This document shows, piece after piece, positions 3,301 to 41,954 of a DNA stretch of 64,000 nucleotides (positions within the stretch are counted from its first letter, which is position 1; each line of letters begins with the position of its first letter). The notes below the pieces were generated by a model, which was given only the letters and a program-made list of their open reading frames with translations, was not told the origin of the DNA and did no database searches. Location: the IMG/VR virus record IMGVR_UViG_3300042564_000781, positions 1 to 64,000 of that record; one strand, 5' to 3'. Position numbers and translations under genes: made by a program. The stretch comes from a virus.

Positions 3301-6300
3301 CCCGTTCATTAGTTGAGCTAGATCTTTACCTAACATTCCACTCGTTGGCTCGTAGAAGAAATTAATTCTGTCAGCTGCCGACATATGCTCAAAGTTTTTC
3401 TCATAGGTAATTCTAATTGTTTCTCCCACGGTAGGTGCAGTATCTAGTGTTAACAATCCAGAATAACTTGTATATCCTTTGCTGGTAGATTTTTTAGTCG
3501 ATAACGTATATTCGCCACGTAAAATATCAATGCCAGTAACTCCGGGGGTGTCAGGATTTATTCCTGACGGGTATAACTTAATAGAGGCTGATCCTATTTC
3601 TATTCTTGGACTCCACTTTAACGCAAATTGTACACGTGAACCTGTGCCAAGTAATGTTTCAGTCTCAGTTTTTTCACTAATATAATAGTCTCTAGTTATT
3701 CTATCAAACTTAATAGCAATCTTATTTGCTCTAACTACTTCACTTTCAATAATTGCAATTGCAGTTGCTGCGGTGCCTGTCTCAGATAGTCCGCCATCTA
3801 GTGTAATAGTAGGTGCTTTAAGATAACGTGTACCCCCAGATATTAAATCAATCCTATTAACTTTGCCATTGGAAATATATGCTTTTGCAGATGCTCCTGT
3901 GCCAAATCCGCCTTCTATTTTAACTACCGGTTGATTAATATATCCATTGCCGCCGTTAAATATTTCTACAGACTGAATAGTAAATCCCACATGATCATTC
4001 CAGTGCTTCCACGGATATGTTAAAATGTCGCTTGATGATGCATCAATAGTGCCATTATTAGTAACTGTTACATTCATAGGGGTAACTGTTAGATTTTCAG
4101 TAACTAACGGAATTAAGTCAAAATCAGTTGTTGATTGTCTAGCATAATCTGTTTTATTATAAGAGCTAACATACTCTCTAATTTTTGTTCTATAAGGTTT
4201 TACTTCATTAATATAGTCTTCAAAATTAGACAAATTATCATTATTATATGTAACTTTTTCTTTTAACTCGCCTACATTATGAGTTGCTTTTACAAAGCTA
4301 GTCTTAAATGCCCAGTCAATAAAAATTTGCTCGTGCATTACATAACGCAGACTTGAAAAGAATAATTTTAAATACTCAACTCGAAGATCATCAACAAGAA
4401 TTTTATCTTTAATAGAATTAATAATAATTCTCAATTCAGCTGCTGCATAATTATCATATAAAGAAGCATCAAATAATTGATTATCAAATCCTACAGATGA
4501 GTTAACAAATGTATAAATGCTACTTGCAAATTGTATAGTTCCGGCCTGTCTACCAACAACTTTATAATTTTGTGTATAATCGATTGTTGTTAAATTATTG
4601 TATTTTTCTAATAATAGCCAGCCCCCGCTACCAATATTTTTTACCTTAACTATACTGCCATTGTTTGCAGACAATGTTACAAGATAGTATGTATTGTCAA
4701 CCAGATAATCAATTTTTGTAAACTGCGTATATCCTGTAGCATACCAATCAGCATAGTTCCAGAATTTTGTCACGTCATATGATTGGCTTCTTATACGATT
4801 CCAACTATTGTCTCTAGCAGTCCACTCATAGATACTCCATTTATCAAATGAACTAGTATCACTAGATACTAACACCGCATGAGGTCTTACTATTAACATA
4901 GTCTCGCTAAAATAGCCGCGGCCAGCGTTTTGTATAGTAACACTGACAATTCTACCAGCAGTATCTAATACTGGAAGTAGTACTGCTCCGATCCCCGAAC
5001 TTACAATTTTAATAAGTGGGGGATTTTTGTATCCATATCCTGGATTATCTATCAATATATCAGTTATAATTCCATTTTCAGTTACCGCAGTTAGTGCTGC
5101 TTGAACTAATGATGCAGTTCCGATAAATCGTAACTCAGTGTCGAAGTCAATAACAGTGTCCCACAATCCCGAAACTGTCGACGGGGCAGGTTCAGATAAC
5201 ATTAGACCACTTATATCAAAGTCATCAACAATTAAATTTTCCATTAGTATAGCATTAACTCTTTCTATATATTGTTTTAATGCTTCAACTCTATTAACAA
5301 ACATTCCCTGACGAGGTCTAAATTCTATTCCGTAACGATTTTTTACTGGAAGATTAGTATCAGGAATAACTCGATCGTTACTGTCTTTTCCAATTAAACT
5401 GTCTATCCATTTGTTTTCAATATTTTTAGGAATAGTTGTGTTCGGGTGTTCGCTTATAATTTTCCATTGACTGTGCATGTTAATGTCATGATTATCTATT
5501 AACCATGTCTGGAAGTTTAATACTATATCAGTACCTTCCAACAAATTAGCAAAATTGACTAAACTAAAACTATTTGCACCAGTGGGGGCAACACATGTGT
5601 ATCCGTATCCTATAGGATCAGATATTAGACTAGATATCTTTTCTGCTGATATTGTTCTACTAACAGAATTAGGTGTTATTTTTTTATTCTTGACCCAGAA
5701 ATAATATGTAGGAATTAATTTTTGACCAACAGTATCATATTTGTTTTTAATACTGTAGACAGTATCTCCATAAAGACTCGTACCGCTTATACCTGCGGCC
5801 AGGCCTTTAGTAGTATCAGCTAACTTGTCCCATTCGCTTGGTAGATATTTTGTTTCGACCCATTCGTAAATGTCAATGCTGGCAGTTTTATATAACTTGT
5901 TCCATGTAGTTGATCTATATACTACTTCACCGCCTTGATTGTCCATAAACTTAGCACGAGTTAAATTCCACCATAACATGCCTACTTGAGCAGTAGTCCA
6001 ATTTAAACCGCTATCAACGTTAACTGAACTAGTGCCTACAGAGTAAGTTGCTGGGTCAAAATATGTCTTGTATCGAATTTCTTGATCGGCCAATCCAGGA
6101 ATTTTTCCCTGTATTGGGTCAACTACGTCAAGGTATGATACAATAGTATTAGTTATTTTATTATATAGATATGCTTTTTTAACACTAGAGATATTTGGTC
6201 TCGGCTGTTCATACACTTTTAAAGTCCACGATTTTAACAACGGTGGTTTAACATATGAGAATACTGCTCCGGCAGAGCTGTTAAAATTAGGCGCTCCAAC

Positions 6301-9300
6301 TAAAATTGTATTATTACCTGCAGTGATTGATGCTCCGTAACTGACAGCAGTTGAGGTAACGCTTTCACCGTATAGAAATTTAGTACCGTAAAGATCATAA
6401 ATGTCAACTCGACTATCACCTGTAGCAAATACTACTAATGTAGTATCGTTGTTAGTAAACTGTACCGTTGTGCCAAATTGGTCGCCTATATCTTTAGTTA
6501 AACTTGTAATTGTTTGATACGGTGTGCTAGTATTGTCAGTATCGTATATGTAGACCGTGCCAATGTCACTACCAATGGCAATGTACTGAGAAGATTGAGC
6601 TATTGAAATACTTTCACCAAATCTGTCACTTGTTGCAGTGCCGGTAAATGTAGTCGACAATACATAGTTGCCCAACGTTAGAGTATATAATTTTACTTGA
6701 CCTTTATCTGAAACAGCACTTGGTACCGCTGCGGCAAACATGTTACCTGTTGCAGATATTGTAATATTTTCAACATCCGTTATTACTAACGGATTTACAT
6801 AATTAGACCAACTACTTGTTCCGGTAGCTTGATAAAAATATACAGCATCGGTTGCTGATACTGCTAGTATATAAGTATTATCTAATTTAGCAAATGCTAA
6901 CTTAGTTCCAAACAATTCATCAGCACTTGCATTCTGACTTATAATAGAATTAACAAAAGTATATCTATTACCTGCTGCTTTGTAATACAAAGAAACATAA
7001 CCTTGATTGGCATATCCGCTACTGTCAACATTACTTGCAGACGGGGACGCAATAGCTAACCACTTACCGTCTGCTGACAATGCAGTTTCAGCGCCAAATT
7101 CTTGACCGGCAACATCAGCTATAGACGGGTCAATTACGAGTGAATGAGTTTGAATCCATTTATATAATTGCGTAGTATTAGCATTGTATGTCGCTGAAAT
7201 GTTCTGTCTTTCTAATATAATTACCTGGTCAGCATCTGTAACAACTGCGGTGGTACCAACTTGAGATACTGTTACTTTTTTACCAAAGTTTAATCCAGTA
7301 AGATCAGGAATAGTACTAAGATCTATATTAAAAGAATTATATACTGAGTTATTTTCATAAACTCCCCAAGTGCCGTTACCAGAATCTTTAGTCCATAGTA
7401 ATTCATTAGGTTTAATACTAGTTGGCAAATTATCGTTTGCATTATCGATTGTATCAAACAAACAAGGAACAAACTGATACAATACTATTCCTGGTGGTTC
7501 TGGTAACGGTTCCCAACCTGTTGCTACTGTGCGAATAACAATCTTCCGCGGTGTTGAAGCGTCTGGCGTTCCGCCAACTCGTTCTATACCAACTGAGTAC
7601 ACTGTGTAAAATCCATCTTTTGGAATAGCAACATTTGTAAGACCTACTATGTCGCCAACAATTACGTTAGGGATTGTATTACAGGTAAGAACTACCTCTC
7701 CAAGTTTACTAGTAGAATTATAAAAGTATTCTGCTTTAGTTACAGTGAATAAACTTTGAGTAAATCTGTATACATTCCACTTTTCGCTAAAGCTATTTAA
7801 TTTATTTTCAAATGCGCACCATACATAATCACCTTCAGTAAAGGTACTAATATCATTTTGTAATGCATCGGCTAATGTGTCAACACTTAGCAATACATCT
7901 TCATATCTAACAAATCCAGGAGTACGCAGATACTGTTTAGTGCCTGTTACTGACCATATATCGTTATTATATCCTAACGGTTTAATGTACACATCCAACG
8001 GACGTTGTCTGTAGATAAAATCAACTACTGTGGAATCAACAGTTGATACTAGCTCTACAGGTTGAGGATTTATTTTAAATTGTGATTCATCTAAAATAAA
8101 TTCAGTTTCATTGAACGCAGTAACAGCGCCGTATGATCCCACACGGACTGCCCATTCTTCATTGAATGTCAAACTCTCTACGCCATCAGCACTTAGCACA
8201 TCAAATAATTTATTGAGAACATTTTGTGTGCCTTTTTCAATAATCATACCTTGATAGAATTTATATTGACTCACATCGTCTTTGATAATATTTTCAAGGT
8301 ACTGACGTTTCTGATATCCAATTAAATGCTGTGCAAATTTCTGTTGCTCTGCATCAAAATTATCAGTATCAAGGTCGTAGAAATCAGTAAACTGTTCTGA
8401 TCGATAGTCCCAGTTAGCTGACATTTTTGCTGTAGGTTTTTCAGCAAGTAAGGACCAGTCTGCGGCATTGAACTTTTGTACACCTGGCAAAGTTGATAGT
8501 GCAGAATAATAAAATTCTTTATACTTTACAATGTCACCTAGTTTATAATCAGTCCATGGTGTCCAGTCATATATTCTAGCTTGATCAAAAATAAATCCTG
8601 GGATGTTAAAACCGCCCTTCCAACCTTGGCTGAGATATCCAATAACTTTAATACGTTCCTGACGATATCCGGGTTCAAGGTCATAGATAACATCATTAAA
8701 CAATGTTCTATTGTCTAAGATCATCACATGTTCTTTTTGTATCAGATAAAATACAGCGCCATATATTCCATGGGTAGTACTTGTAGGAGTTAGTGAGAAT
8801 GAATTCTCATCATCATTTCGATAGGTATTAGTAAACTCAGGTTCTAATTTTTGTCCGTCTACTCTAAATATCTTATATCCATAAAACGGATCTAGTAGAT
8901 CGTTAACCACACTGTTATTAGTAGATAGAGTTATTCTATTTGCTGCTGGGCTTACAGAAAGTACTGCTCCGGCTCCCCAATTCTGAGTTGTCCAAAACAT
9001 AAATTCTTTTACTGCGGTTTCCCAGTTGGTAATAGCTTTTAATGTAGTGTTAAAGTCATCAAATACAAATCCTTGATTTGATAGGTATGCGCCGTAGCCT
9101 TGCAAGAAATCTACTACTTCTTGGACAGTTGCTAACTTTGTTCCGTATCCTAAGGTCAATGTTAGGGTAGTATCCCATGACTTCCTAATGTTAGCATCAC
9201 GGCCGCCGCTAACAGGCAATTCTGCAAGTCTAGAAAATAATGCAGCGTCAAACGTATCTGTAGAGGTATGTGTAACATTTACTCGATAATATCGATTACC

Positions 9301-24437: not shown

Positions 24438-25451
24438 TTGAGCAACCTTTTTAAGAAAGTAGCCTGTTTTACTGACATTCATTTTGGATTAAAGTCTAAC
24501 AGTCAAGTACATAACCAGGACTGCGAAGACTTTGTAGACTGGTATATTGCAAAAGCCAAGGAGCAAGGATGTGACACAGGAATTTTTATGGGCGATTGGC
24601 ATCACAACCGCAATAGTCTTAATATTACAACTATGGACTACAGCCTTAGAGCCCTTGAGAAACTGGGACAGGCTTTTGATAAGTTTTATTTCTTTCCTGG
24701 TAATCATGATCTTTATTACAAAGACAAGCGGGATATTCACAGCGTCGAATTTGGAAAGTATATTCCTGGAATTACTGTGGTACACGAACCTACTACTATT
24801 GGCGACGTCACCTTATGTCCGTGGCTCATCGGAGACGAATGGAAAACCATAGGCAAGAAAGGTGGCAAATATATCTTTGGTCACTTTGAATTGCCCAGCT
24901 TCTTCATGAACGCAATGATTCAAATGCCCGATCACGGTGAAATTCAACTGGATAGCTTTAAAGGTTATGAGTTGGGATTCAGTGGTCACTTCCACAAGCG
25001 TCAGCAACAGCGCAATATGATCTATATTGGTAATGCGTTCCCGCATAACTATGCAGACAACTGGGATGACGATCGTGGTATGATGATACTCGAGTGGGGT
25101 GGACAACCAGAATACCACACTTGGCCTATGCAACCTACCTTCCGTACGGTTAAACTAAGCCAGCTCATCGACGATGCTGATAAGATTATTAAACCTAACC
25201 AGCACCTACGTGTTAGTTTAGACATTGACATTAGCTATGAAGAAGCAAGTTTTATTAAAGAAAAGTTCATGACTGACTACGCAATACGTGAACTAACACT
25301 TATTCCCGAGAAGAAAGAAATTGAGATTAACACAGACATCGATATTCAAGCATTTGAAAGTGTAGATCAAATTGTCTCCAATCAACTTATCAATATCGAA
25401 AGCGATACATTTGATAAGAAGATCCTGTTGGAGATTTACAATAGCCTATGA
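24438..25451 (+). CDS. gp47: Recombination endonuclease subunit gp47 (Mre11/SbcD-like)
   Basis: Metallophosphoesterase motifs DIH, GD, GNHD, GHF, SGHFH; TTG start with GGAG RBS. Confidence 0.92.
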   Translation: MSNLFKKVACFTDIHFGLKSNSQVHNQDCEDFVDWYIAKAKEQGCDTGIFMGDWHHNRNSLNITTMDYSLRALEKLGQAFDKFYFFPGNHDLYYKDKRDIHSVEFGKYIPGITVVHEPTTIGDVTLCPWLIGDEWKTIGKKGGKYIFGHFELPSFFMNAMIQMPDHGEIQLDSFKGYELGFSGHFHKRQQQRNMIYIGNAFPHNYADNWDDDRGMMILEWGGQPEYHTWPMQPTFRTVKLSQLIDDADKIIKPNQHLRVSLDIDISYEEASFIKEKFMTDYAIRELTLIPEKKEIEINTDIDIQAFESVDQIVSNQLINIESDTFDKKILLEIYNSL

Positions 25452-27223
25452 TTAAAATTAAAGATTTAACAGTTAAGAACTTTATGAGCGTGGGTAATCA
25501 AACCCAAGCTGTGAACTTTGGTCGTGAACAATTAACACTTGTACTAGGTGAAAACTTAGATCAAGGTGGGGATGACAGCGGATCACGTAATGGTACAGGT
25601 AAAACTACCATTGTAAATGCACTTAGCTTTGCATTGTATGGTAATGCCCTGACTAATATCAAGAAAGATAACTTGATCAATAAGATTAACAATAAGAACA
25701 TGCTGGTCACGCTGACTTTTGAAAAAGACGGTAACAAGTATAAGATTGAGCGGGGGCGTAAACCTACGATTATGAAGTTCTATGTTAATAATCAAGAACA
25801 GAGTGCAGAGTCAACTGACGACAGTCAGGGTGACATGCGTGAAACGCAAAAGGACATTGACGAACTGTTAGGCATGAGTCACGATATGTTCAAACATATT
25901 GTAGCTCTTAACACCTATACAGAACCGTTTCTCAGCTTGAAGGCCAATGAGCAACGTGAGATCATTGAGCAGTTGCTGGGCATTACTCTGTTATCAGAGA
26001 AAGCAGACACGCTTAAAGAACAGATTAGACTGACAAAAGAAAATATCTTTCAAGAAACAGCAGATATCGAAGCTGCTAAAAAATCTAACGACAAAATCCA
26101 AGTTAGTATTACTGGATTAGAAACTAGACAGTCAGCATGGTACTCGCAACAGAAGACAGACTGTAATAAAATTGCAGCCAGCATTACAGAACTGCAAAGT
26201 GTTGACATTGAGGGTGAGTTAGAGCAACATGCCAAAGTAAAATTATACGATGAACATGCTGCCAAGATAAAAAGTCTTAACAAAGAACGTGCAACATTAG
26301 AAACTGCGGTTATTCAAGCAGACAAGAGTGTTAACAAGTATACCAAAGAACTAGAGCAGTTAAAAAATAAAACGTGTCCGGCATGCGAGCAGAGCTTGCA
26401 CAGCCATAAACATGAAGAAATGACTGCCAATGTTGAAAAGAATCTAGCAGATTCTGTGTTATACTTACAAGGTATTAGTGACAGTTATACAAGTGTATTG
26501 CAAGAATTAGAAACTATTGGTGATATCAATGGCAGACCAAAAACTTACTATGATACATTAGAAGAAGCACTCAAGCATCAGAACAATTTAACCAGCCTTG
26601 AAGCTGCATTGATTAAGAGAACAGATGAAGTTGATCCGTATCAAGAACAAATTGACGATCTAAAGCATACTGCTATACAGGAAATCTCTTGGGATAACGT
26701 CAACATGCTGAACAGTATGAAGGATCACCAAGAGTTCTTGTTAAAGTTGTTGACTAATAAAGATTCGTTTATTCGTAAGAAGATCATAGATCAAAACCTT
26801 GCATACTTGAACAATAGATTAACCTATTATCTTGATAAGATGGGATTGCCGCATCAAGTAAGTTTCTTAAACGACTTAAACGTTGAGATCACACAGCTAG
26901 GTCAAGATCTTGACTTTGATAACTTGTCACGTGGTGAACGTAACAGATTAATCCTTGGACTGAGCTGGGCATTCCGAGATGTATGGGAAAGTTTGTATCA
27001 AAGCATTAACTTGTTGTTTGTTGACGAATTAATCGACAACGGATTAGATGCAAACGGTGTAGAAAATGCCTTAGGTGTGTTGAAAAAGATGGCACGTGAA
27101 CGTAAGAAGAACATTTTCTTAATCTCGCACAAGGATGAGTTGATTGGTCGTGTTAATAATGTACTTAAGGTCATTAAAGAAAACGGCTTCACTTACTATG
27201 CAAACGATCTAGAGATTGACTGA
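25448..27223 (+). CDS. gp46: Recombination ATPase gp46 (Rad50/SbcC-like)
   Basis: Walker A NGTGKTT, coiled coil with CPAC zinc hook, signature LSRGE, Walker B LLFVDE, ISH. Confidence 0.93.
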   Translation: MIKIKDLTVKNFMSVGNQTQAVNFGREQLTLVLGENLDQGGDDSGSRNGTGKTTIVNALSFALYGNALTNIKKDNLINKINNKNMLVTLTFEKDGNKYKIERGRKPTIMKFYVNNQEQSAESTDDSQGDMRETQKDIDELLGMSHDMFKHIVALNTYTEPFLSLKANEQREIIEQLLGITLLSEKADTLKEQIRLTKENIFQETADIEAAKKSNDKIQVSITGLETRQSAWYSQQKTDCNKIAASITELQSVDIEGELEQHAKVKLYDEHAAKIKSLNKERATLETAVIQADKSVNKYTKELEQLKNKTCPACEQSLHSHKHEEMTANVEKNLADSVLYLQGISDSYTSVLQELETIGDINGRPKTYYDTLEEALKHQNNLTSLEAALIKRTDEVDPYQEQIDDLKHTAIQEISWDNVNMLNSMKDHQEFLLKLLTNKDSFIRKKIIDQNLAYLNNRLTYYLDKMGLPHQVSFLNDLNVEITQLGQDLDFDNLSRGERNRLILGLSWAFRDVWESLYQSINLLFVDELIDNGLDANGVENALGVLKKMARERKKNIFLISHKDELIGRVNNVLKVIKENGFTYYANDLEID

Positions 27224-27498
27224 TGAACTATGATGAGTTGCACGATCAGTTGATGAAAGAACTCAGGGCATACTTTGAGGACTATCAAACTTGGGCAACT
27301 ACAGAGTCGCATGCCAGTGGTATGCGAGCTCGCGCACATTTGTCGGATATTAGACGAATTGCCAGCGCATTAAGAGTAGAAATATTAGAAACACGTAAAA
27401 CTAAACCAAAAATTAAATCACCTGCATATAGAGCTGCAAAGCTCGCAGAACAACAGGCTCAGAATCAACAGGCAATTGAGGATGACGATGCTAACTAA
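27223..27498 (+). CDS. Small helical protein, Hc1 (histone H1-like)-related
   Basis: HASGMRARAHLSDIRRIASALRVEI resembles the Hc1-like core (AAGxRARKxLxEI..LR.EI); basic C-terminal stretch. Confidence 0.5.
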   Translation: MNYDELHDQLMKELRAYFEDYQTWATTESHASGMRARAHLSDIRRIASALRVEILETRKTKPKIKSPAYRAAKLAEQQAQNQQAIEDDDAN

Positions 27499-27501
27499 AG
27501 C

Positions 27502-27930
27502 ATGTCATGGACTTATCAGAATGAAATTATCGAAACACTCCCTGAAGAGTGTATCGGATTTGTATATCTTATAACCAATGTCATCTCTGGCAGAAAATAT
27601 ATAGGCAAAAAACTTGCAAAATTCTCTAAGACTACGGTTAAAACTGTAAAACTAAAGAACGGTACCAAGAAGAAAAAGAAGATTAGAAGCAAAGTCGACA
27701 GCGACTGGCGTGATTATTACGGAAGTAGTCCTAATCTTCAAAAAGACATAGACGAATTAGGCAAAGAAAAATTCACAAGAGAAATCTTATATTACTGCAA
27801 CTCAAAGGCGCAATGCTCTTACATCGAGGCCAGAGAACAATTCTCCCGTAAAGTATTAGAATCAGACGAGTATTACAACGGACACATACAAGTTCGTGTA
27901 CATGGCTCACACATTATATTAAAATCTTAG
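27502..27930 (+). CDS. Stand-alone GIY-YIG (Seg-like) nuclease
   Basis: GFVY-x10-YIG, YYGSS, IEAREQ (candidate catalytic Glu), YYN; 142 aa with a Lys-rich insert and no C-terminal DNA-binding domain. Confidence 0.8.
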   Translation: MSWTYQNEIIETLPEECIGFVYLITNVISGRKYIGKKLAKFSKTTVKTVKLKNGTKKKKKIRSKVDSDWRDYYGSSPNLQKDIDELGKEKFTREILYYCNSKAQCSYIEAREQFSRKVLESDEYYNGHIQVRVHGSHIILKS

Positions 27931-28380
27931 GCTCAACAAGCAGTAATAGGCAAGCGTCGGCTAACATCGGACGCCCGTATACCTGGATCTCGGATCGCAG
28001 GGAAGGAAACTCTAGCTGCTAAGAGTACTCAACCACCATCCTTAACAGGACGAGGATCGCAAAGCTGCCGCGGTTTGGTTGTTTAAAGGAATTTCAAAGG
28101 CAAAAAGAGGGAGAAATACCCACGTTTGCATGTATGTTAGCGTATGCATGTAGGCCGCCGTCATATAAAGACACAGCTCGAGGTACCGGATGACCGCCTC
28201 TGTAATGCTGTAACGCTAAGTGATATTGTTCAACTCAGATAATGTTTCTTTGCCCGCAAGGGCAAAGTGTGACTGAACAATCTAGATAATATTTAAACTG
28301 CTTCGCAGCAGTATTATTAAATACAAAAAGAAAAACAGTTCGAGCGCAAGCGATGAACAGATGTACGCAGTACATCATAA
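27931..28380 (+). ncRNA. Candidate large structured non-coding RNA (alternatively origin-like element)
   Basis: Largest intergenic gap in the window, no ORF of 60 aa or more, about 48% GC over 27961-28260 by hand count, at least 10 stems including nested multibranch helices, GCAA tetraloops and a G-U-rich stem that pairs only on the + strand. Confidence 0.6.
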
Positions 28381-28404
28381 ATACATAACAATGCAGAGAC
28401 CTCT

Positions 28405-29379
28405 ATGAAAGTATATCAAATCATCAGTGAAGTAACACCTCAAAATTATAATCCTGGAGCTCTGGCTAGAAGGCAAGCGATGAGAACGCAGACTCCTACT
28501 GCTCCACCTGTTGCTGCACCTGCTGCACCGTTGACTACTGCTCAACAAGCTGCTGCTAGAGCTGCTAAAACTACTGCAAACGTACAGAGACTTGATCAGT
28601 TAAAAGGTAAAGGAAAGATTGGTGATGCTAAAGTTGAGTATGCTAAACTAGTACAACAACTAAGAGGCAAAGCAGCAGTTAAAGACATTTATGAAACTGC
28701 AAAAAATGTTAAATCGGCTCGTGGCGCTTATAAATTAGAAACATTTATGAAAAATGTTGGCGGCCCTATTAGTATGTTTATTAGGGCTGTTGATTTGTTG
28801 GCAATTGCTCGAGAATACTATAATGTTGTGGGATCAATTGAAGATGCTTATCAGAACGGTGATCTAAGTGAAGATGAAGCTGAAAGTACAAGAATTTTTA
28901 AAAGTTATATAAGTCAAGTCAATGGTGTACTGACTGCCAAGTTGGCAGTCTGGGGGGTACACGCATATACTAGTTTTAAAATAGCTAAATGGATTGCTAG
29001 AATTATTAGATGGGTAGCAGGCGGTGCTACAACTATAGCAACAGGTGGTATTGGCCTAGCAGCCGTGATAGCAAGCGAAGCGTTCTTTATCTGGTTAGAA
29101 AGATGGCTAGACAGCGATCAAGGTCGTGACTGGTTACTCAACGGGTATGTTGGTATGATGATTATAGGTCTTGGAAAGATTGAAGGTAGCGTATATGATA
29201 CAGTTACTGGATACTACACTAAGCAAGCTGGTGTAAAGACTGATGTGCAGAACAAGAAAGCTCTAGATGCAGCCACTACACCTCAAGAGAAGCAGGCAGC
29301 GCAGGCAGCTATTGATAATAAACAGACCGCCCAAGCTCGATCTGACGATATTGACGCTCTACAAAAAGAATTAAAGTAA
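28405..29379 (+). CDS. Hypothetical late protein, possible internal head/ejection protein
   Basis: Preceded by CATAAATA (28376-83); N-terminus MKVYQIISE resembles the T4 capsid-targeting sequence; hydrophobic Gly/Ala segment. Confidence 0.6.
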   Translation: MKVYQIISEVTPQNYNPGALARRQAMRTQTPTAPPVAAPAAPLTTAQQAAARAAKTTANVQRLDQLKGKGKIGDAKVEYAKLVQQLRGKAAVKDIYETAKNVKSARGAYKLETFMKNVGGPISMFIRAVDLLAIAREYYNVVGSIEDAYQNGDLSEDEAESTRIFKSYISQVNGVLTAKLAVWGVHAYTSFKIAKWIARIIRWVAGGATTIATGGIGLAAVIASEAFFIWLERWLDSDQGRDWLLNGYVGMMIIGLGKIEGSVYDTVTGYYTKQAGVKTDVQNKKALDAATTPQEKQAAQAAIDNKQTAQARSDDIDALQKELK

Positions 29380-36423: not shown

Positions 36424-36431
36424 ATACTACT

Positions 36432-36671
36432 ATGATACTTAGAGAATTATTTTATGCTGATAAAGATATGCAGGCCATTTCAAATGACCTGCAATATTCA
36501 GCCAGCCAAGACGATAGTCCTTTGAAAAGAAAAGATACTCGTAAGACAAGATTAACCTTACGACAGATCAACGAACTAAGAAAAGCTTCTGAAAGCCATA
36601 TATTAGAACAAGAAAAAGATTTAGAACTTGTACAGCAAATGTACATGACGCCGGCTGCACCGCCCGCGTAA
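36432..36671 (+). CDS. Small conserved head-module protein (79 aa)
   Basis: ORF between portal and prohead core; TAAATA 5 nt before its ATG. Confidence 0.65.
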   Translation: MILRELFYADKDMQAISNDLQYSASQDDSPLKRKDTRKTRLTLRQINELRKASESHILEQEKDLELVQQMYMTPAAPPA

Positions 36672-36788
36672 TAAATAACTCGATGACGATTTTTTCTAAA
36701 ATCGTCTAAAATTCCACCATTATAACGTTTATATTACAATTAAGTGTAAATATATCGACAGCCTTTACAATCTAATTAGGAGACAAAC

Positions 36789-40652: not shown

Positions 40653-40751
40653 ATGTGATAAATACTTTGTATGATTTACACAGGGTAGATCTTATGCGGA
40701 AATCCAACCGCGTACAGCCTAGAACGCTGTTTTTCTTAAGGAGAAATTAAA

Positions 40752-41954
40752 ATGGGACGTCCTTTAAATAAAAAATATTTTGGTAACCGCAACACAGGTT
40801 CCGCAAGCACCGCAGCTGATAATTCTATCGGTGGTGGAGCAGTTGCTAGTGTTACATTAAACGCATTAGGCGCATATACAACTCGCCCAACAATTACATT
40901 TGCAGTGCCAACACTACCAGGTGGTGTTCGTGCTACTGGTACTATTACTTCTGAAGTTGTTAGTGCCGCAGTCAGCGGTACACAAACTCGTGCTTATCCA
41001 ACAGCCGCAGCCGCAATTGGTTTCAATACTGCCGGTTCGACCTTTACAGCAACCGTAACCAGCGCCGCTCTAACAACTGTAGTTCGCGCAAGTGCTACAA
41101 CAATAGGTTTTGATGCTGCCAGCGCAAACCTTGCCATAAGTGGTAACAGTATTCACATTACAGGCGCAAGTATCACAGGTACATTATCAATTGGTGGTGT
41201 AGCAATTGCCGCTGGTCAAATTTATTATACAGGTGCTCCAAGTACCACTACATCAGCAACATTGTATGCCACATATGCTGACGCAGTTTCTGCAACTAAC
41301 CCATTAACTATTGTTGCTGGTACAGGCGTTGGCGGTGCAACATTTACACACGGTGTTACATTTGGTGCAGTGACAGCATTAACTCCAGTTGCTCGTGGTT
41401 CATATGAAGCATTAGTTGCAAGCGGCGATGCTGTAGTTGCTACAGCTGGTGTAGGTTCTGGACTAACAATCACTCCAACATATCGTGCTAAAGCAGTTGT
41501 CATTACAGAAGCAGGTTCTGGATACACAGCAGCACCAACACCGACATTTACACAATCAGTAACAGCTACATCAGTTAACATGTTAGTTGACAGTGGTAAC
41601 ATTCGTACAACTGGAAATCAAGAAAATGCTATTTTGATGACAGCATTCTTAACTGGTGGATCAGCATTACCAGTTGACATTATTAAACAAGTATCTACTA
41701 ACCGTTTTAGAGTAACTGATGGTACACTTACTGGTATTGTTAAATTAACAGATTCATTAGCCAATGCCGCAGGTGAAGGCAGCGTTCGGTTACTTGACAC
41801 AGATGGCGGCACATATTTTGCTACTAAACTTACAGCACGTAAAGCTGTTATTACTCGTGGCACTGGCACACAAACAGCATTTGTTACAGGTACATCAGTT
41901 CCGTGGAACATGACTGCTGCAACTGCAACATCATTGTTAATCGATAACGCTTAA
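40752..41954 (+). CDS. Virion structural protein (Thr/Ala/Gly-rich, possibly head decoration/fibre)
   Basis: GATAAATA at 40657-64 and AAGGAG RBS; directly after gp23; GSGYT beta-repeat motif. Confidence 0.65.
   Translation: MGRPLNKKYFGNRNTGSASTAADNSIGGGAVASVTLNALGAYTTRPTITFAVPTLPGGVRATGTITSEVVSAAVSGTQTRAYPTAAAAIGFNTAGSTFTATVTSAALTTVVRASATTIGFDAASANLAISGNSIHITGASITGTLSIGGVAIAAGQIYYTGAPSTTTSATLYATYADAVSATNPLTIVAGTGVGGATFTHGVTFGAVTALTPVARGSYEALVASGDAVVATAGVGSGLTITPTYRAKAVVITEAGSGYTAAPTPTFTQSVTATSVNMLVDSGNIRTTGNQENAILMTAFLTGGSALPVDIIKQVSTNRFRVTDGTLTGIVKLTDSLANAAGEGSVRLLDTDGGTYFATKLTARKAVITRGTGTQTAFVTGTSVPWNMTAATATSLLIDNA

Follow-up and report, generated by a model that had tools for sequence, protein, structure and literature searches.

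Our analysis concerns a virus record of IMG/VR, IMGVR_UViG_3300042564_000781, which has 120,667 bases and is 33% complete by CheckV, and whose first 64,000 bases we call the window. Counting open reading frames (ORFs) of at least 90 amino acids (aa) on both strands, the largest internal stretch of the window that is ORF-free on either strand is 27931-28404, a gap of 474 nucleotides (nt) with a G+C content of 0.45. The gap begins at the stop codon of a gene for a GIY-YIG nuclease, which follows genes for gp47-like and gp46-like recombination proteins and a 91-aa ORF on the same strand (Table 1). The G+C content is 0.45-0.485 across 27800-28200 as against 0.34-0.39 in the flanking segments, and the sole other ORF-free stretch of at least 250 nt away from the window ends lies at 36424-36788 (365 nt, G+C 0.34). 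No transfer RNA (tRNA) or transfer-messenger RNA (tmRNA) is predicted anywhere in the window. An original prediction, made from these letters alone, had remarked on a large, G+C-rich, stem-tiled gap after the nuclease stop codon and had read nuclease and gap as a protein-RNA pair. The observation is borne out, and our results indicate that the gap indeed encodes a structured RNA, which runs over almost its full length.

Table 1. Features of the locus, in order of position in the window (PK, pseudoknot; H, helix or hairpin; R, repeat).
Feature	Position	Strand	Evidence or remark
gp47-like recombination nuclease subunit, first gene of the operon	24438..25451	+	PF00149 Metallophos, E 2.7e-05
gp46-like Rad50/SMC-type ATPase	25448..27223	+	PF13476 AAA_23 and PF02463 SMC_N
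91-aa ORF	27223..27498	+	sub-threshold Hc1 match, 18.2 bits against a cut-off of 23.5
142-aa stand-alone GIY-YIG nuclease, basic beta-hairpin insert (about residues 40-66)	27502..27930	+	PF19835 SegE_GIY-YIG
Whole structured RNA as delimited, about 430 nt	27945..28377	+	conservation and covarying helices along the full length
5' domain, Polynucleobacter-1 RNA motif RF01718	27949..28084	+	106.2 bits against a cut-off of 37, model 1-141 of 141, E 5.2e-22
H1, small hairpin GGG/CCC	28109..28121	+	compensatory variants by eye in A1
H2, hairpin of 12 base pairs, conserved loop GUUAGCGU (28136-28143)	28124..28155	+	90-92% of cells pair; 12/12 pairs changed on both sides
PK1 5' strand (H2 loop), pairs with 28213-28219	28137..28143	+	96.5% of cells pair; 7/7 pairs changed on both sides
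PK2 5' strand, pairs with 28191-28193	28161..28163	+	97.6% of cells pair
H3, outer stem (28173-28177 with 28207-28211)	28173..28211	+	85.7% of cells pair; 5/5 pairs changed on both sides
H4 (28180-28184 with 28196-28200) and H4b (28188-28189 with 28194-28195), inside H3		+	100% pair
PK1 3' strand, ACGCUAA	28213..28219	+	first seen by eye, then MAFFT covariation
R1, first copy of single-stranded direct repeat	28232..28245	+	varies in the same sense as R2
H5, hairpin of 8 base pairs, GCAA loop, between R1 and R2	28248..28267	+	74.9% of cells pair (MAFFT); in classes A, B and C
R2, second copy of direct repeat, 47 nt after R1	28279..28292	+	same-sense column variation
H6, hairpin of 4 base pairs, UUC loop	28298..28308	+	A1 stem variants TGC/GCA, CGC/GCG, CAC/GTG, GTC/GAC
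H7, tandem G-A pairs and GNRA loop (GAGC-GCAA-GCGA), variable outer stem	28338..28358	+	motif in 130/142 non-redundant tails
H8, last hairpin, 7 base pairs	28360..28376	+	hairpin of at least 5 pairs in 123/130 tails; 50 distinct 5' arms
CATAAATA, late-promoter-like word before the variable downstream gene	28376..28383	+	read from the sequence
324-aa ORF	28405..29379	+	position not conserved: 4/81 related loci

A scan of the whole window at the Rfam gathering thresholds gives two matches, RF01718 and RF02980. The latter (freshwater-2 RNA) is matched over its full length at 40674-40754 (+), with 71.4 bits against a cut-off of 49.9, and is a second catalogued orphan motif in the record. The former, the Polynucleobacter-1 motif, occupies the 5' part of the gap, scoring above the curated gathering score over the full model, and every helix is present in the alignment. 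Its consensus helices are GCGTC/GACGC, CCTGGATC/GATC-CAGG, ACTCT/AGAGT, CAACCA/TGGTTG and the hairpin TCCT-TAAC-AGGA, the very stems that had been read here from the sequence. The RNA had also been taken to be wholly unrecognised, with a match to a known family named beforehand as refuting; its first 136 nt are RF01718, and for the remainder, after 28084 and up to about 28377, no Rfam family reaches its threshold. In its catalogue entry, Polynucleobacter-1 is listed by Weinberg et al. (2010) as a likely RNA, with 'cis-reg y' and with 'switch' left open (PMC2864571), and the taxa are given there as 'Burkholderiales, fresh water/estuary' (PMC2864571). Besides this catalogue paper, we found no paper that names the motif in the open-access library searched. 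Here RF01718 is neither a complete RNA nor the 5' leader of a conserved gene. Each of the 33 matches that we located (in the window, in sets of 19 and 11 loci, and in L021 and L388) is followed by about 300 nt of further conserved structure, which we call the 3' domain. RF01718 and the 3' domain are one RNA unit, of which RF01718 is only the 5' third.

The fold of the 3' domain is supported by covariation. Conservation extends from about 27949 to about 28380 in 47 sequences of the window's own class (class A below), with a peak at 28170-28300. RNAalifold combined with inspection of 46 sequences reveals compensatory changes and a loop-to-strand pairing, and mutual information over 138 non-redundant sequences recovers the helices and two pseudoknots. 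We also applied a 45-pair model to a structure-blind MAFFT alignment of 70 diverse sequences and compared it with 500 shuffles and with the same model after its partners had been slid. In this comparison 87.6% of cells are paired, against 74.8 +/- 0.4% in the shuffles and 39.5-46.8% with slid partners; the covariation score is 0.419, against 0.176 in the shuffles and at most 0.112 when slid; and none of the 500 shuffles attains the observed pairing or covariation score. Conservation and covariation among homologues, a check that had been proposed at the outset, are thus found. Moreover, G-U pairs are invariant or frequent, which fits a + strand RNA, and the strand originally proposed stands.

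Most of the individual stems fare equally well. ACAGC/GCTGT, GAGG/CCTC, CGG/CCG and CTTTGCCC-GCAA-GGGCAAAG are all supported by covariation. The hairpin at 28124-28155 exists too, with 12 base pairs and four G-U pairs supported instead of the 14 base pairs and six G-U pairs first counted, and the outer stem ATTGTTCA/TGAACAAT has to be given up, since its columns either change in the same sense or form pairs in just 63% of sequences. H1 shows only 56% of its cells paired in the MAFFT alignment because the register slips. H3 encloses a near-invariant core, GGUACCGGnnnACCGCC, and the core motif is invariant in A2. PK2 switches between U-A/G-C and C-G/A-U (28162-28192, UA 37 and CG 32; 28163-28191, GC 43 and AU 19). 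H6 is missing in three loci (L015, L021, L042), and the outer stem of H7 has at least 4 pairs in 126 of 130 tails, with 56 distinct stem sequences. Since H7 and H8 covary beyond the end originally assigned to the element, we delimit the RNA to about 27945-28377, and H8 is likely its 3' boundary. That the RNA is real follows from the RF01718 match, the covariation of the 3' domain, the pseudoknots, and the covarying H7 and H8.

The repeats R1 and R2 behave differently from the helices, since paired columns in the two copies change together in the same sense. The counts are AA 72, GG 62 and AG 1 at 28237/28284; AA 85 and GG 49 at 28241/28288; TT 110, AA 20 and GG 4 at 28243/28290; and GG 124 and CC 9 at 28238/28285. 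The linked columns are always 47 nt apart, which rules out ordinary antiparallel pairing of the repeats. R1 and R2 are also consistently distinct at some positions (CUC against UCU, and the last base), so that simple DNA-level homogenisation is unlikely. Outside the repeats, no column is informative about the repeat columns, and a scan that allowed G-U pairs gave no fixed site pairing with R1 or R2 in cis. Neither repeat has a match of at least 10 nt elsewhere in the 120.7-kb record, where 9-mers alone occur, at chance level. Repeat states share at most 0.31 bit with residues of the GIY-YIG protein, against 0.9 bit between R1 and R2. Two words 47 nt apart that change together in the same sense are unusual for RNA, and they may reveal a symmetric interaction or a target in trans. 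Three other readings of the repeats were tried and set aside. A third strand in cis would call for their complement, of which exact 7-mers occur in 9 of 121 sequences, at scattered places. For a small ORF or a translational bypass (xyA followed by UAA or UGA), the upstream frame has a median of 7 codons, the same as the other frames, in 137 sequences. As promoters, GATGAA and GATGAT are unlike the -10 box when compared by eye with its consensus.

How widely is this RNA distributed? In IMG/VR we count at least 586 relatives of the GIY-YIG protein, of which we kept 80 loci with 71-99% identity, and nearly all of these 80 have a gap of 390-510 nt after the GIY-YIG gene. We sampled RNA loci by two RNA motifs, which are independent of the protein, as well as by the protein. 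In one sample, 14 of 120 stretches with a motif match were set aside as chance, as were motif matches in another sample, in which 11 of the 13 loci tested had no RF01718 match. Among the 307 IMG/VR loci sampled in all, 263 have the 3' domain, giving 226 distinct 3'-domain sequences. The carriers are uncultured T4-like phage contigs, and in this clade, L126 excepted, the RNA closes the operon gp47-gp46-nuclease. A blastn search with the RNA matched none of 50,697 cultured phage records. In bacterial genomes, none of the 120 stretches listed for the core motif matches the profile beyond the motif; these are chance matches, mostly in high-GC genomes. The RNA is a core element of a large clade of uncultured T4-like phages, with no match in the cultured phage records.

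The gap sequences fall into at least three classes with unrelated 5' domains. Class A, to which the window belongs, has RF01718 (19/20 and 11/14 tested loci, those without it being class B). Class B has an unrelated 5' part without an Rfam match and, in 14 of 15 loci, the core motif GGTACCGGnnnACCGCC, which class C lacks in all 6 loci. The tail R1-H5-R2-(H6)-H7-H8 is common to classes A, B and C and to L126. The RNA consists of a lineage-variable 5' domain, a middle core in which two pseudoknots surround GGUACCGGnnnACCGCC, and a tail that is present in every version. L003 has a GIY-YIG protein 99% identical to that of the window and a class C RNA. In L356, a divergent 3' domain with the core GGTACAGCATGACCGCC and altered repeats lies downstream of an RF01718 match. 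The class A profile misses this 3' domain, so the family is wider than counted.

The neighbours of the RNA are conserved on one side. Nearly all loci have a gp46-like gene ahead of the nuclease gene, and most related loci whose sequence extends far enough upstream also have a gp47-like gene; the name gp47 is our own reading of a phosphoesterase match. The 91-aa ORF has no PHROG match and is present in only part of the related loci. Downstream of the RNA, the ORF varies among loci in identity and strand and is often on the minus strand. In the window it is the 324-aa ORF, which has no Pfam or PHROG match and is followed by a baseplate-like gene on the minus strand.

The nuclease itself is of a familiar type. 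The claim that it is a bare catalytic domain with a basic insert is upheld by a full-length match to PF19835 SegE_GIY-YIG (model 1-123 of 123, E 1e-32, with 113.4 bits where 25 is the cut-off), by an AlphaFold2 model (mean predicted local distance difference test score, pLDDT, 90.1), in which the core carries a long beta-hairpin that is the basic 27-residue insert, and by fold matches. The best four of these in VIA-align are all GIY-YIG domains: the I-TevI catalytic domain (Z 8.6), PD-T4-3 (7.2), T4 EndoII (5.4) and UvrC (5.3). By sequence there is no match in the PDB at E <=1, and Foldseek gives none at E <=0.001. At 142 aa the protein is the catalytic domain alone, and neither Pfam nor the model reveals a separate DNA-binding domain. 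Residues Y22, Y33, G35, R93, E109 and N126 are invariant in 35 nuclease sequences and include the catalytic set of Tyr, Tyr, Arg, Glu and Asn expected of the superfamily; their mapping to I-TevI residues is putative. The best PHROG, phrog_447 (E 1.6e-36), is a 148-position family of stand-alone proteins. Several GenBank phage records, and phrog_447 too, label homologues 'NAD synthetase', which looks like a propagated misnomer. In tblastn searches the family appears in 380 cultured phage records, all below 60% identity and 376 of them covering at least 80% of the query. Synechococcus phages account for 289 of the records, and Methylophilales phage Melnitz, with 48%, gives the best match.

Across 101 loci compared with the window, four-fold synonymous sites of the GIY-YIG gene have an identity of 0.47 and those of gp46 one of 0.42, and the median protein identity is 0.78 for the GIY-YIG protein against 0.65 for gp46. 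As the silent-site identity is similar to that of gp46, the high protein identity in general probably reflects purifying selection on old copies rather than recent spread. One lineage (L002, L003) is an exception to this vertical pattern. Between positions 27477-27935 of the window and L003:2976-3431 the nucleotide identity is 96.3%, confined to the GIY-YIG ORF; outside this tract, identity in the gp47-gp46 flank falls to 76%, and the two RNAs belong to different classes. Judged from the sequences, the tract is a discrete gene exchange that left a sharp recombination mosaic. Overall we take the GIY-YIG protein to be a DNA nuclease conserved among T4-like phages.

The association of RNA and nuclease gene is close and is not absolute. 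A GIY-YIG gene lies directly upstream of the RNA in 201 of the 226 distinct copies, and upstream with one or two unrelated genes between in 10. In 3 copies its place is taken by a gene for PF24608 PDDEXK_15, of the PD-(D/E)XK type (E 2.5e-29), whose PHROG name is 'RusA-like Holliday junction resolvase', and 1 copy (L126) has no nuclease gene at the RNA. In the remaining 11 the upstream sequence is too short for context. Thus 211 of the 215 assessable copies have a GIY-YIG gene upstream, which is not a sporadic presence. The presence of a Holliday junction resolvase-like gene in the same slot hints at a role of the nuclease in recombination.

That the RNA is bound to the nuclease gene, as originally supposed, does not hold in view of the PD-(D/E)XK loci, L126, and the loci in which one or two genes intervene. 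Cargo genes lie exactly between the GIY-YIG stop codon and the RNA at L005:3440-4453, L024:3436-4152, L074:3428-4255, L102:10375-11148 and in L388 (two ORFs). They are unrelated genes that encode 238-458 aa and have no Pfam match in the four tested; the boundary between stop codon and RNA seems to accept insertions. At L095:4972-5391 the PD-(D/E)XK gene is separated from the RNA by an ORF of 139 aa, RNase H-like as judged by eye. L126 has no gp46/gp47 genes, and a permuted alpha-type tmRNA, a tRNA and the RNA lie at 3911-4304, 5169-5240 and 8395-8830. There Polynucleobacter-1 and the 3' domain are found about 3 kb past the tmRNA and tRNA, between a 649-aa Amidoligase_2-like gene and a 214-aa gene, and one weak Amidoligase_2 match is the sole Pfam match among the cargo genes and the L126 neighbours. 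In the two cultured-phage loci that we inspected, the nuclease gene lies close to genes for ribonucleotide reductase, and there is neither a long gap nor a match to the RNA profile. Since all linked cases share the gp47-gp46 synteny, they represent one lineage and not independent trials, and the adjacency of RNA and nuclease looks syntenic within one phage clade. The link to gp46/47 that had been proposed is likewise real as synteny, and it reads as the synteny of that one clade. By itself, a minimal GIY-YIG gene beside a structured RNA is no evidence for RNA guidance. A variable guide-like segment with a match elsewhere, which had been suggested, was not found in the 120.7-kb record or in the searches in cis, R1 and R2 being the only variable words.

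What do RNA libraries and signals at the borders add? Twelve runs recorded as RNA contain 4-16% of the sampled words, and four metatranscriptome runs from four studies, freshwater or unspecified, have contigs that map to the gene or the RNA. In run X3 the summed depth, pooled over relatives, peaks at 158-190 over 28149-28290, with almost no cover past 28362. Because such depth pools many relatives and cannot rank genes, it says little on expression. The coverage that had been asked for is there, and as weak evidence it amounts to presence in RNA libraries. Directly at the end of H8, the word CATAAATA resembles the T4 late promoter consensus, TATAAATA, and words like TATAAATA follow H8 in L003, L042, L105 and L126. 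From this resemblance, CATAAATA may be a late promoter.

Taken together, we propose that the gap encodes an independent, modular, structured non-coding RNA of the phage, about 430 nt long, produced from the end of the recombination operon, and we assign this reading a probability of roughly 0.55. The RNA would be transcribed as the last segment of an operon gp47-gp46-(orf91)-nuclease-[optional cargo genes]-RNA, and the transcript would end at H8, directly before the late-promoter-like word. It would work through its fold, in trans and independently, with R1 and R2 offering two copies of one recognition sequence to a partner, perhaps a protein dimer, a complementary nucleic acid in two copies, or a second copy of the RNA. 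The GIY-YIG protein would not be RNA-guided and would stand beside the RNA by synteny. A bolder and considerably more tentative version is that we are dealing with a new class of large modular phage RNA of which Polynucleobacter-1 is one swappable head, and in which the identical tail words would be the signature of a symmetric assembly, either a homo-oligomeric particle, such as is reported for ROOL and GOLLD, or the capture of two partner copies, possibly serving the adjacent recombination nucleases. A catalogued orphan motif, in Rfam since 2010 and rated likely cis-regulatory, is in either case re-read as one head of a larger phage RNA, which shifts attention to a stable phage RNA instead of a leader. 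Several points weigh against our proposal. The mode of action proposed for R1 and R2 is putative. The contigs from RNA libraries pool relatives, may include DNA carry-over, and are silent on transcript ends. Consensus scans gave 4 promoter-like sites where 3.3 are expected, and no + strand terminator. Finally, the nuclease gene is in the same operon as the RNA in 214 of the 215 assessable copies; from this shared operon within the clade, a functional tie may exist, and the fact that a second nuclease family can fill the slot could mean that a nuclease of some kind is required.

Such a tie is the essence of one alternative, namely that the RNA is a guide, activator, inhibitor or scaffold of the adjacent GIY-YIG or PD-(D/E)XK nuclease. 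It would account for the near-constant same-strand nuclease gene upstream, for the use of one slot by two unrelated nuclease families, and for R1 and R2 as variable words in a constant frame, and the long basic beta-hairpin of the modelled protein could bind nucleic acid. However, the GIY-YIG family is widespread without the RNA, as the 380 cultured records demonstrate; L126 has the RNA without a nuclease gene, and genes can separate the pair; the repeats lack a match of at least 10 nt in the record and do not co-vary with the protein; and the co-occurrence all comes from one syntenic clade, whose copies are not independent. We therefore consider this partnership improbable. The original prediction had cast the pair as a ribonucleoprotein with an RNA-directed or RNA-regulated nuclease, which the RNA-free family in cultured phages and the intervening genes do not support, so that its observation is confirmed and its interpretation partly supported. 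We also doubt, somewhat less strongly, a role in cis in which the RNA is a compact, exonuclease-resistant 3' end that stabilises or terminates the gp47-gp46-nuclease messenger RNA and insulates it from late genes. The RNA does stand at the operon end even where cargo genes are inserted before it, a late-promoter-like word or convergent genes come after it, and the hairpin tail is the part common to all versions. Yet 430 nt with two pseudoknots, near-invariant single strands and exchangeable 5' domains far exceed what the protection of an end needs, L126 carries the RNA in another type of genome between unrelated genes, and the consensus scan found no terminator-like site at the RNA end.

The remaining two alternatives have less to recommend them. 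If the locus acted as DNA, with a free-standing homing endonuclease beside its target or recombination site and R1 and R2 as repeated protein-binding sites, then the repeats would stay identical, as they do, and an exchange confined to the GIY-YIG ORF, such as the 96.3% tract shared with L003, would be natural; weaker PHROG matches of the nuclease are indeed named homing endonuclease. Compensatory changes, G-U pairs and pseudoknots, on the other hand, point to selection on an RNA fold. The gene is moreover near-universal in the clade rather than sporadic, its four-fold-site identity (0.47, against 0.42 for gp46) indicates old vertical copies under purifying selection, and no DNA-binding domain was found in the nuclease, which makes this reading distinctly unlikely. 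A riboswitch or other 5' leader controlling the downstream gene is what the 2010 catalogue entry, with its 'cis-reg y' and open 'switch', would lead one to expect (PMC2864571), and many conserved nucleotides in junctions and pseudoknots would suit it. But conservation does not extend to the downstream gene, which in many loci is encoded on the other strand, and between the motif and the next start codon lie more than 300 nt, which include several hairpins and a late-promoter-like word. Because the downstream ORF varies in identity and strand, the RNA is not a 5' leader, and we give this option hardly any weight. Thus the independent phage RNA remains our preferred interpretation.

How does this RNA compare with known systems? 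Its likeness to Polynucleobacter-1 extends over the whole model and every helix, and the freshwater habitat fits the entry in the catalogue paper (PMC2864571); it differs from the motif as catalogued in being the 5' third of a longer RNA that closes a phage operon and leads no conserved gene. With cow-rumen-2 (RF02947), a permissive scan gave 22.9 bits over 28124-28228, against a cut-off of 66 (E 0.13 in a 1.1-kb search). The elements in common are a hairpin with a UUAGC loop followed by GCCGCC, GGAUGACC and a 3' UAAGU, and the same elements form H2, the core and PK1. However, this match is below threshold, and it recurs neither at E <=1 in 14 other loci nor at the gathering threshold in 40 loci, so that we set homology aside and keep the likeness as a lead rather than as membership. 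The nuclease resembles I-TevI in its catalytic-domain fold (Z 8.6, root-mean-square deviation 2.6, 82 residues aligned), T4 EndoII in fold (Z 5.4), and Seg proteins in the Pfam SegE_GIY-YIG domain match. I-TevI and Seg proteins have a DNA-binding domain, which the nuclease here lacks, having instead its 27-residue basic beta-hairpin insert, and the sporadic presence of a Seg-like homing endonuclease is not seen either. We know of no RNA-guided GIY-YIG enzyme. The order of nuclease gene and long structured RNA on the same strand recalls IscB-omegaRNA and TnpB-reRNA. The locus differs from these in having no transposon ends, no guide with a target found in the phage record, and genes that can intervene; nor do nuclease and RNA always go together, the 380 cultured records having the nuclease family and 0 of 50,697 the RNA. 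Co-occurrence of a nuclease gene with a structured RNA is described for TnpB (PMC11061315). Finally, GOLLD and ROOL are likewise large, multi-domain, pseudoknotted, phage-carried RNAs of unknown function. There is no sequence or model match to either, and the RNA here is shorter, at about 430 nt. In L126, nevertheless, it lies near a tRNA and a tmRNA, which is the context given for GOLLD and ROOL in two reports (PMC5737381; 10.1101/2024.12.08.627333).

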